A stretch of DNA of 64,000 bases, taken from NCBI RefSeq assembly GCF_003790525.1, contig NZ_CP033635.1. One strand, given 5' to 3'. The first letter of the stretch is position 1, and every line of letters begins with the position of its first letter. Origin of the DNA: Escherichia coli. GTDB lineage: Bacteria; Pseudomonadota; Gammaproteobacteria; Enterobacterales; Enterobacteriaceae. Below the pieces are notes generated by a model. It was not told the DNA's origin. It saw only the letters and a list, made by a program, of their open reading frames with translations, and searched no databases. This document shows, piece after piece, positions 1-1,025 of this stretch. The position numbers and the translations under genes were made by a program.

Positions 1-1
1 C

Positions 2-235
2 ATTACAGCTAATTCCGATCGAACTGCAGAGATGGTAATGCATTCCTGCGGTATTGTGACTCTCCTGAAGCCACATCTGGGATATAAGGTGTGTTCTGAA
101 ATGGCGCACGAAGCATACCATACAGGCAAATCCCTCCATCAGATAGTGGTTGTCGAACGTAAGCTACTCACACAGGAAGAATGGGAGAAGACATTCAATC
201 TGGATAATCTGATTGCTCCGAAGTTCGAACAATAA
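2..235 (+). CDS. Aspartate ammonia-lyase/fumarase-family protein, C-terminal fragment (5' end outside window or truncated)
   Basis: Frame is open from window start; translation ...GIVTLLKPHLGYKVCSEMAHEAYHTGKSLHQIVVVERKLLTQEEW...NLIAPKFEQ matches the AspA/FumC C-terminal pattern as I recall it. Confidence 0.5.
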   Translation: MTANSDRTAEMVMHSCGIVTLLKPHLGYKVCSEMAHEAYHTGKSLHQIVVVERKLLTQEEWEKTFNLDNLIAPKFEQ

Positions 236-544
236 AATGTTTGGAAACTAAAAATGTAACCAATGTTCCTAGGCTGGCCCCCTGAATCTCCAGACTCCCT
301 ATATCACTTAAATTGATACAACTTTTTAGAGTAGTCATTAGTGAACAGATAATTGATAACTCAGAACCAGTAAAATGCAAAAGACGCACCACGCTGGGAA
401 AATCGCTGCTATTCAGCAGAGTTTTGTATCGAGAATGGTGGCCAGCCACTTATTGCTCTCGCGTAAGCGGGTATCCCCATCGTTTACCAGTCCAGATATA
501 GGTCACGTCACCATACTTGATTTAGCTGTGTCACAGCTAAGCGC

Positions 545-1025
545 CCTTCAAGTTCTTAGGATAGCTACAAGTTCATGACTGCCATGCCTGTACCGGAGGG
601 TCAACGGCTGACAGCTGACCAGCCCCTGTTCTTTCATGAGACTGCCAGCAAGCTTGCGTCCCATCTGGTAGTCTCTCCGGGTTGCAATTGTGGCGATGTT
701 CCTTGCTCCGCCATTAAGCTCAATTACCTGACTACGTAATACAGCCCGTCTACCGTCTTTTTTTCAGGACGGTTTTTCCAATCTCTGTAGCTGCTTCGAT
801 GAATCCTGCACACATGGCAAAGTGCGATCACCAGATAATGCGCTCTGAGCTTCTCGATTATCGAGAACTGTTTAGGGAGTCTGACATCAAGAGCGCCGTA
901 GCCTTTTCTAATATTTCATTCTCTATTTCAATACGTTGCCGCTTTTTCCTCAGCTCACGTATTTCGATTTGTTCTGGTGTCATCAGAGAGGCTTTTGGTG
1001 TTTTGCTCTGATGCTCATCACGCAG
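545..1025 (-). mobile_element. IS3-family transposase remnant (orfA end and orfB start, truncated)
   Basis: Minus-strand translation gives [35 protein letters not shown] followed in another frame by ...[35 protein letters not shown], the OrfA/OrfB junction pattern of IS3-family elements; interrupted by stops. Confidence 0.45.

Follow-up and report, generated by a model that had tools for sequence, protein, structure and literature searches.

What lies at a genomic-island junction where the end of a metabolic gene runs into insertion-sequence (IS) debris, and does the gene continue intact beyond the edge? The left end of a 64,000-nucleotide stretch of the Escherichia coli chromosome (contig NZ_CP033635.1; the whole stretch is referred to below as the window) raises this question. 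A first-pass annotation, made from the letters alone, had seen here the tail of a lyase gene, a truncated IS3-family remnant and, further right, an IS66 fragment, and could not see whether the lyase gene was whole upstream. The best explanation, to which a probability of about 0.9 is attached, is that the segment consists of the 3′ end of a functional accessory aspartase gene, followed by three dead IS fragments, within a CP4-44-type island. The identities of these parts, their boundaries, their decay, their variants in the population, and the conservation of aspartase residues are all observed directly in the present analysis.

Genomic setting of the junction

From left to right, the window spans a CP4-44-type island beside cobUST and tRNA-Asn, the his operon, and the O-antigen and colanic-acid clusters. 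It is within this island, on the cobU/tRNA-Asn side of the E. coli chromosome, that the junction lies. Bases 1–1700, which include the full IS scar, are 100% identical to E. coli KFu014 (NZ_CP091712.1), and at least 80% of them are covered in about 407 of 5426 complete E. coli genomes. KFu014 differs from window 1–13699 by one mismatch and one gap (99.98% identity), and matches window 14076–50152 at 99.5% identity. The stretch 50152–56080 is without a match of 1.5 kb or more in KFu014, while the flanks on both sides do match. Judged by the best-matching genomes, the O-antigen cluster of the window is O21-type. The O21 strain TUM9803, among the best matches to window 44000–64000 (best 99.8%), has a different variant of the junction and carries no lyase gene.

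Several other island genes were noted in passing. A run on the plus strand (16025–23546) encodes a 387-residue hypothetical protein, a YeeP-like GTPase (303 aa), a dynamin-family protein (798 aa) and an RdcB-family protein (301 aa), and also holds a patatin-like phospholipase (356 aa) and a 263-residue ORF; PADLOC gave only weak, domain-level matches for these genes (LeoBC, 5e-8; phospholipase effector, 4e-5) and no catalogued defence system. Further debris lies on the minus strand at 5864–7855 and 12740–14109, comprising a gamma-glutamyltransferase fragment, an ISL3 transposase gene interrupted by an internal stop, and a copy of IS150, with identities taken from the annotation of the near-identical KFu014 record. 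According to the same record, here 99.5% identical, the cbtA toxin gene of the CP4-44-type cbeA/cbtA pair (about 26880–27255, plus strand) is frameshifted.

The gene at the left edge encodes an aspartase paralogue

Frame 2 of the plus strand is open from base 2 to a TAA at 233–235, giving 77 codons (ITANSDRT...APKFEQ) that correspond to codons 390–466 of a 466-codon gene for an accessory aspartate ammonia-lyase paralogue (window 1–235). The 77-residue fragment matches Pfam FumaraseC_C (E = 2.8e-15) and aligns to positions 393–467 of the NCBIfam aspartase models. This family match is not due to chance, and it bears out the earlier reading of the first 235 bp as the C-terminus of an AspA/FumC-family lyase. 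The fragment comprises the small C-terminal helical domain only; the catalytic residues all fall outside the window. Its best PDB matches are aspartases, with E-values from 3.7e-11 to 2e-7 (6WNG at 3.7e-11, 1J3U, 8RJ0 and 1JSW), against 5e-5 or weaker for fumarases.

The complete gene can be read in KFu014, where it is an intact 1401-bp ORF (positions 10835–12235 of the KFu014 locus, L001) that encodes the 466-residue protein WP_000086501.1, annotated as 'aspartate ammonia-lyase'. The gene is likewise intact in about 235 complete genomes. The protein has both domains of the aspartase/fumarase superfamily (Pfam Lyase_1, E = 1.4e-86; FumaraseC_C, E = 6.4e-14), and its top PDB matches are the aspartases 6WNG, 1JSW and 1J3U.

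A class II fumarase of the FumC type would be the obvious alternative identity, given that FumaraseC_C is the only Pfam family to match the 77-residue fragment by itself and that fumarases are also among the significant PDB matches. The model scores speak for AspA: the full protein reaches 680.8 bits on the NCBIfam AspA subfamily model NF008909 (cut-off 510) and 645.5 bits on the strict aspA equivalog TIGR00839, compared with 459.9 bits on the fumC_II equivalog, under its cut-off of 664.75. All top PDB matches are aspartases, with fumarases some 170 bits lower; the protein has aspartase-type QSTND and GGAGTS motifs; and the neighbouring genes encode a racemase and a DcuA-like carrier. The FumC identity was accordingly rejected as highly improbable, on the missed fumC_II cut-off and the better scores of aspartases. 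The protein is best regarded, from its sequence, as an aspartase paralogue and not a fumarase.

How close it comes to the housekeeping enzyme is a matter of degree. The score on TIGR00839 falls under the equivalog cut-off of 681.2, and identity to K-12 AspA is 54% over the full length. The lyase is therefore a diverged paralogue, for which the name AspA holds at the subfamily level only. It shares fold and family (Lyase_1 plus FumaraseC_C) with E. coli AspA (1JSW) and Bacillus AspB (1J3U/3R6V), but differs from E. coli AspA in length (466 against 478 residues), in being an island-borne accessory protein, and in the position of its gene downstream of one for a racemase. Aligned to 1J3U, it keeps all the substrate-binding and catalytic residues known from AspB structures (T101, S140, T141, N142, T187, H188, S318, K324 and N326), and the SS-loop GSSIMPGKVNP is identical to that of AspB; these conserved positions lie upstream of the window, in the KFu014 locus. 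The protein would be expected to convert L-aspartate to fumarate and NH3. A literature search on this lyase paralogue found no paper.

The accessory gene occurs in about 4% of the complete E. coli genomes: at least 80% of it is present, at an identity of 99% or higher, in the roughly 235 genomes mentioned above. Every genome additionally possesses core aspA, whose DNA is about 67% identical. Could truncation or disruption beyond the left window edge nevertheless have made a pseudogene of the copy in the source genome? The region does attract IS elements: the lyase gene of one strain is cut by IS1 at codon ~108, another strain has an IS at window 114–118, and a further one has a frameshifted lyase gene. 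This is unlikely, however, as the closest genome over window 1–13699 (KFu014) carries an intact ORF, as do the many genomes in which the gene is so well conserved, and 1884 blocks of the assembly collection list the exact 466-residue protein.

A putative aspartate-utilisation module

In all eight contexts examined for the exact lyase protein, the gene order is the same: a divergent LysR-type gene, a gene for a 239-residue Asp/Glu racemase, one for a 432-residue carrier of the DcuA/DcuB family, and the lyase gene. The core aspA gene of K-12 is likewise followed by dcuA, so that core aspartase and island lyase are alike in being linked to a DcuA-type carrier.

A similar set of genes has been characterised in Shigella flexneri, where orf8 and orf9 of the SRL pathogenicity island (SRL-PAI) were shown to be required for D-aspartate racemisation and growth on D-Asp, and together to suffice for both (PMC6980539). 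That study tested the racemase and transporter only, in a Shigella homologue that has no lyase (PMC6980539); the published support thus covers the first two genes of the aspartate module. The order LysR, aspartate racemase and DcuA-like carrier (orf7–orf9) is shared, and both islands are of the CP4-44 type with Inovirus-Gp2 and YeeU/YeeV-type genes. The SRL-PAI module as published ends at orf9 and is followed by resistance genes, whereas here the third gene is an aspartase gene. The SRL-PAI orf9 forward primer matches exactly at the Dcu start codon and the orf8 forward primer matches in 15 of 17 bases; the flanking and reverse primers have no specific match to the lyase-module locus. These two gene-start matches and the gene order are the basis for regarding the module as homologous, though not identical, to SRL-PAI orf7–orf9.

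The gene set suggests a pathway of uptake, racemisation and deamination. The Dcu-type carrier would import D- or L-aspartate, the racemase would turn D-Asp into L-Asp, and the aspartase would split L-Asp into fumarate and ammonium; such a pathway would mirror the core aspA–dcuA pair.

This picture is somewhat complicated by the model scores of two of the proteins. The racemase (L001 8536–9255, upstream of the window), named 'aspartate/glutamate racemase family protein' by PGAP, scores 250.4 on the NCBIfam model for the cysteate racemase CuyB and so passes its cut-off of 190. CuyB is a member of the same PLP-independent aspartate-racemase family (PMC11193023). Because of this score there is a small chance that the substrate is a different one; similarly, since the lyase misses the aspA equivalog cut-off, it could act on a substrate other than the one used by the housekeeping enzyme. 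Taken together, the two scores leave some room, although little, for a lyase that is a specialised member of D-amino-acid catabolism with a true substrate other than L-aspartate, for example L-cysteate. If this improbable reading were true, the module would contain an aspartase-family enzyme working on another acidic amino acid such as L-cysteate.

Relics of three insertion sequences

A spacer of 34 nt (236–269) separates the lyase stop codon from the first IS-derived inverted repeat. No terminator is predicted in it, and no second copy was found in the window or in the fetched loci. Beyond it lie the relics of three different insertion sequences, in keeping with the earlier description of a heavily IS-scarred junction.

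The first relic (270–467, plus strand; right boundary within about 3 nt) belongs to the IS2 group of the IS3 family. It is collinear with IS2 nt 1 to ~247 at 73% identity, and has both an IS2-type left inverted repeat (TAGGCTGGCCCCCTGAATCTCCAGAC..., with one base differing from the IS2 repeat in the first 26) and the start of orfA that follows it. The latter is degraded, with ATG changed to ATA at 349–351 and one frameshift. The relic stops at about nt 247 of 1331, and the transposase genes and the right inverted repeat are missing; compared with IS2 it thus lacks the start codon and 1.08 kb of sequence. The assignment is based on the DNA alignment, as tblastn of IS2 OrfA and OrfB against the window gave no match, the relic being too short and too degraded; Pfam found no family in the corresponding peptide. 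RefSeq has no annotation for 270–467. Closer relatives are other unannotated relics only, at 89–100% identity, and the complete E. coli genomes showed no close relative that is intact. An identity to IS2 of only 73% makes it a distinct element of the IS2 group, known here in relic form alone.

The second relic (468–1228, minus strand; start within ~467–470) is IS911-like, also of the IS3 family, and corresponds to IS911 nt 6–792 at 85% identity, or the left 63% of the element. The left inverted repeat is shared with IS911, except that GGTTC stands in place of its outer 5 nt, which read TGAAG in IS911; the right inverted repeat is absent, and the pair of repeats ending in 5′-TG...CA-3′ is therefore not found. 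The orfA gene is split over two frames by one frameshift and one stop; when these are read through, the stitched product matches Pfam HTH_Tnp_1 (29.3 bits against a cut-off of 24.1). The canonical slippery site for the −1 frameshift between orfA and orfB is A AAA AAG; in the relic this heptamer is mutated, the run reading AGAAAAG (TTAGAAAAGG) where the IS911 copy has an A-run. Of orfB, only the N-terminal ~150 codons remain, in three frames and with deletions of 18 and 5 bp. The stitched orfB product matched no Pfam family, the rve/DDE core included, and the alignment ends at IS911 nt 792. In short, the features common to the relic and IS911 are the left inverted repeat, an HTH-encoding orfA and the N-terminal stretch of orfB; the relic has lost the right third of the element, its DDE core and its right inverted repeat.

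The opposite-strand orfA/orfB remnant of the first-pass annotation is this second relic, although its end lies at 1228 and not at 1025; the IS3 family was named correctly, while the IS2-like relic on the plus strand went unnoticed, so that one element was seen where there are two. In favour of a single IS3-family element over 270–1228, possibly still mobile, is the RefSeq record, in which the only 'transposase' pseudogene here corresponds to window 471–1161. The probability of this reading is vanishingly small. The segment 270–467 follows IS2 nt 1–247 on the plus strand, but 467–1228 follows IS911 nt 6–792 on the minus strand; the two join at internal positions, each retains one end only, both contain many stops, and neither has an rve domain. 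The single-element reading was therefore rejected in favour of two IS3 lineages on opposite strands.

The third relic (1232–1670, plus strand) substantiates the IS66 fragment noted earlier further right, and comprises the last ~440 bp of an ISEc23/IS682-like element at 83% identity. It holds frameshifted C-terminal codons of TnpC, with Pfam matches to DDE_Tnp_IS66_C (E = 4.8e-14) and, in part, to DDE_Tnp_IS66 (1.6e-4), and ends at 1670 in a right terminal repeat (...ACGCTTAC) that matches the end of ISEc23 and is of the GTAAGCG type characteristic for its assignment to the IS66 family. The tnpA–tnpB–tnpC set and the left terminal repeat are not present: relative to ISEc23/IS682, the relic is without tnpA, tnpB and about three-quarters of tnpC. 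Bases 1229–1231 can be assigned to neither the IS911-like nor the IS66 relic.

Directly to the right of the scar, and adjoining the IS66 relic in all variants seen, is a four-gene module on the plus strand (1779–5824). Its first product is a 404-residue protein with a DeoR-type HTH and a PfkB kinase domain, for which the newest PGAP record has the name 'ribokinase RikA'; the others are a GATase1-like protein, a DMT/YdcZ transporter and a phosphotriesterase-related protein.

Origin and remodelling of the scar

The junctions between the relics are informative as to their origin. The IS2-like relic, broken at nt ~247, meets the IS911-like relic at nt ~792, and the nearly complete left end of the latter abuts the middle of IS66 tnpC. 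Such internal breakpoints point to elements that inserted into one another and were later cut by deletions, not to simple insertions, and the three relics would be the scars of these events; the order of events is inferred from the breakpoints only. Each relic is spread over several frames with stops, and retains one end; as there is no intact transposase gene and no pair of ends, none of them can move. The scar now parts the aspartate module from the unrelated PfkB-kinase/amidotransferase/DMT/phosphotriesterase module, and its present activity is passive only, in that new IS elements can land in it and further deletions can start from it.

Comparison across genomes reveals both kinds of change. 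Independent insertions of intact IS elements occur at 114–118 (inside the lyase gene), at 702–707 and at 1188–1190 (IS3); the element at 702–707 is about 74% identical to the IS2-like relic. Genomes of the ST648 type lack window 496–1231 (736 bp), between CCAG repeats at 492–495 and 1232–1235; they keep 467–495 in register with IS911, which marks them as deletion derivatives. In D5-type genomes, the yoeA′ pseudogene is joined to window 283, and the sequence is collinear with the window from there onward.

K-12 illustrates a larger loss. Between yoeA′ and 'yeeP it keeps window 283–473 (191 bp, IS2-like relic) at 99.5% identity and then jumps, via 3 nt of microhomology, from 473 to window 17592 in the YeeP-like GTPase gene, so that 283–473 and 17592–18147 are adjacent with a 3-nt overlap. 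In comparison with the window, CP4-44 of K-12 has neither 474–17591 nor anything to the left of 283, and is without the lyase module, the IS911-like relic and the IS66 relic. The yoeA′–'yeeP junction of K-12 is thus a 17.1-kb deletion derivative relative to the larger island, and the truncation of the 'yeeP pseudogene corresponds to that deletion.

Another, rarer island version (loci L012, L017 and L020) carries a lyase gene that is 100% identical through the TAA and is unrelated from base 236 on. The break at window 235/236 (L012 4176/4177; L020 8401/8402) falls exactly after the stop codon, which is followed by a 155-nt spacer, a gene for a second Dcu carrier and one for an AnsB-like asparaginase. 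The junction of the window type is found in 218 genomes. From these population variants, the scar is old and is still being remodelled.

Conservation might instead hint that the relics have been co-opted, for instance as a promoter for the PfkB operon or, through the orfA stump, to supply a small HTH protein: the scar is at least 99% conserved in hundreds of genomes, and a 47-codon ORF with the N-terminus of orfA survives at 1018–1161. A scan of window 1–1800 finds 3 promoter-like sites against 2.8 in shuffled sequence, and 1 terminator-like site against 1.2, so that neither kind exceeds chance, with no terminator after the lyase stop. In window 1–2000, Rfam yields nothing, a permissive threshold bringing up two sub-threshold eukaryotic families only. 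The deleted parts of the scar differ between ST648-, D5- and K-12-type genomes, and whatever core these retain in common is shared only by descent, and the high identity fits recent clonal spread. Co-option is very unlikely on this evidence, and the preferred reading of three dead fragments beside a functional aspartase gene is retained.

Significance for E. coli accessory islands

The coding parts of this junction are ordinary and already known, all being annotated in RefSeq records of identical sequence. What is added is an IS2-like relic that had no annotation, giving two IS3-family relics rather than one, exact boundaries for all three relics, a lyase gene that is whole in near-identical genomes, and the likely role of this gene in an accessory aspartate module, putatively for D/L-aspartate utilisation. 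No new question is opened by this; the value lies in a tidier annotation of one island junction, which is useful for annotating and comparing the accessory islands of E. coli.
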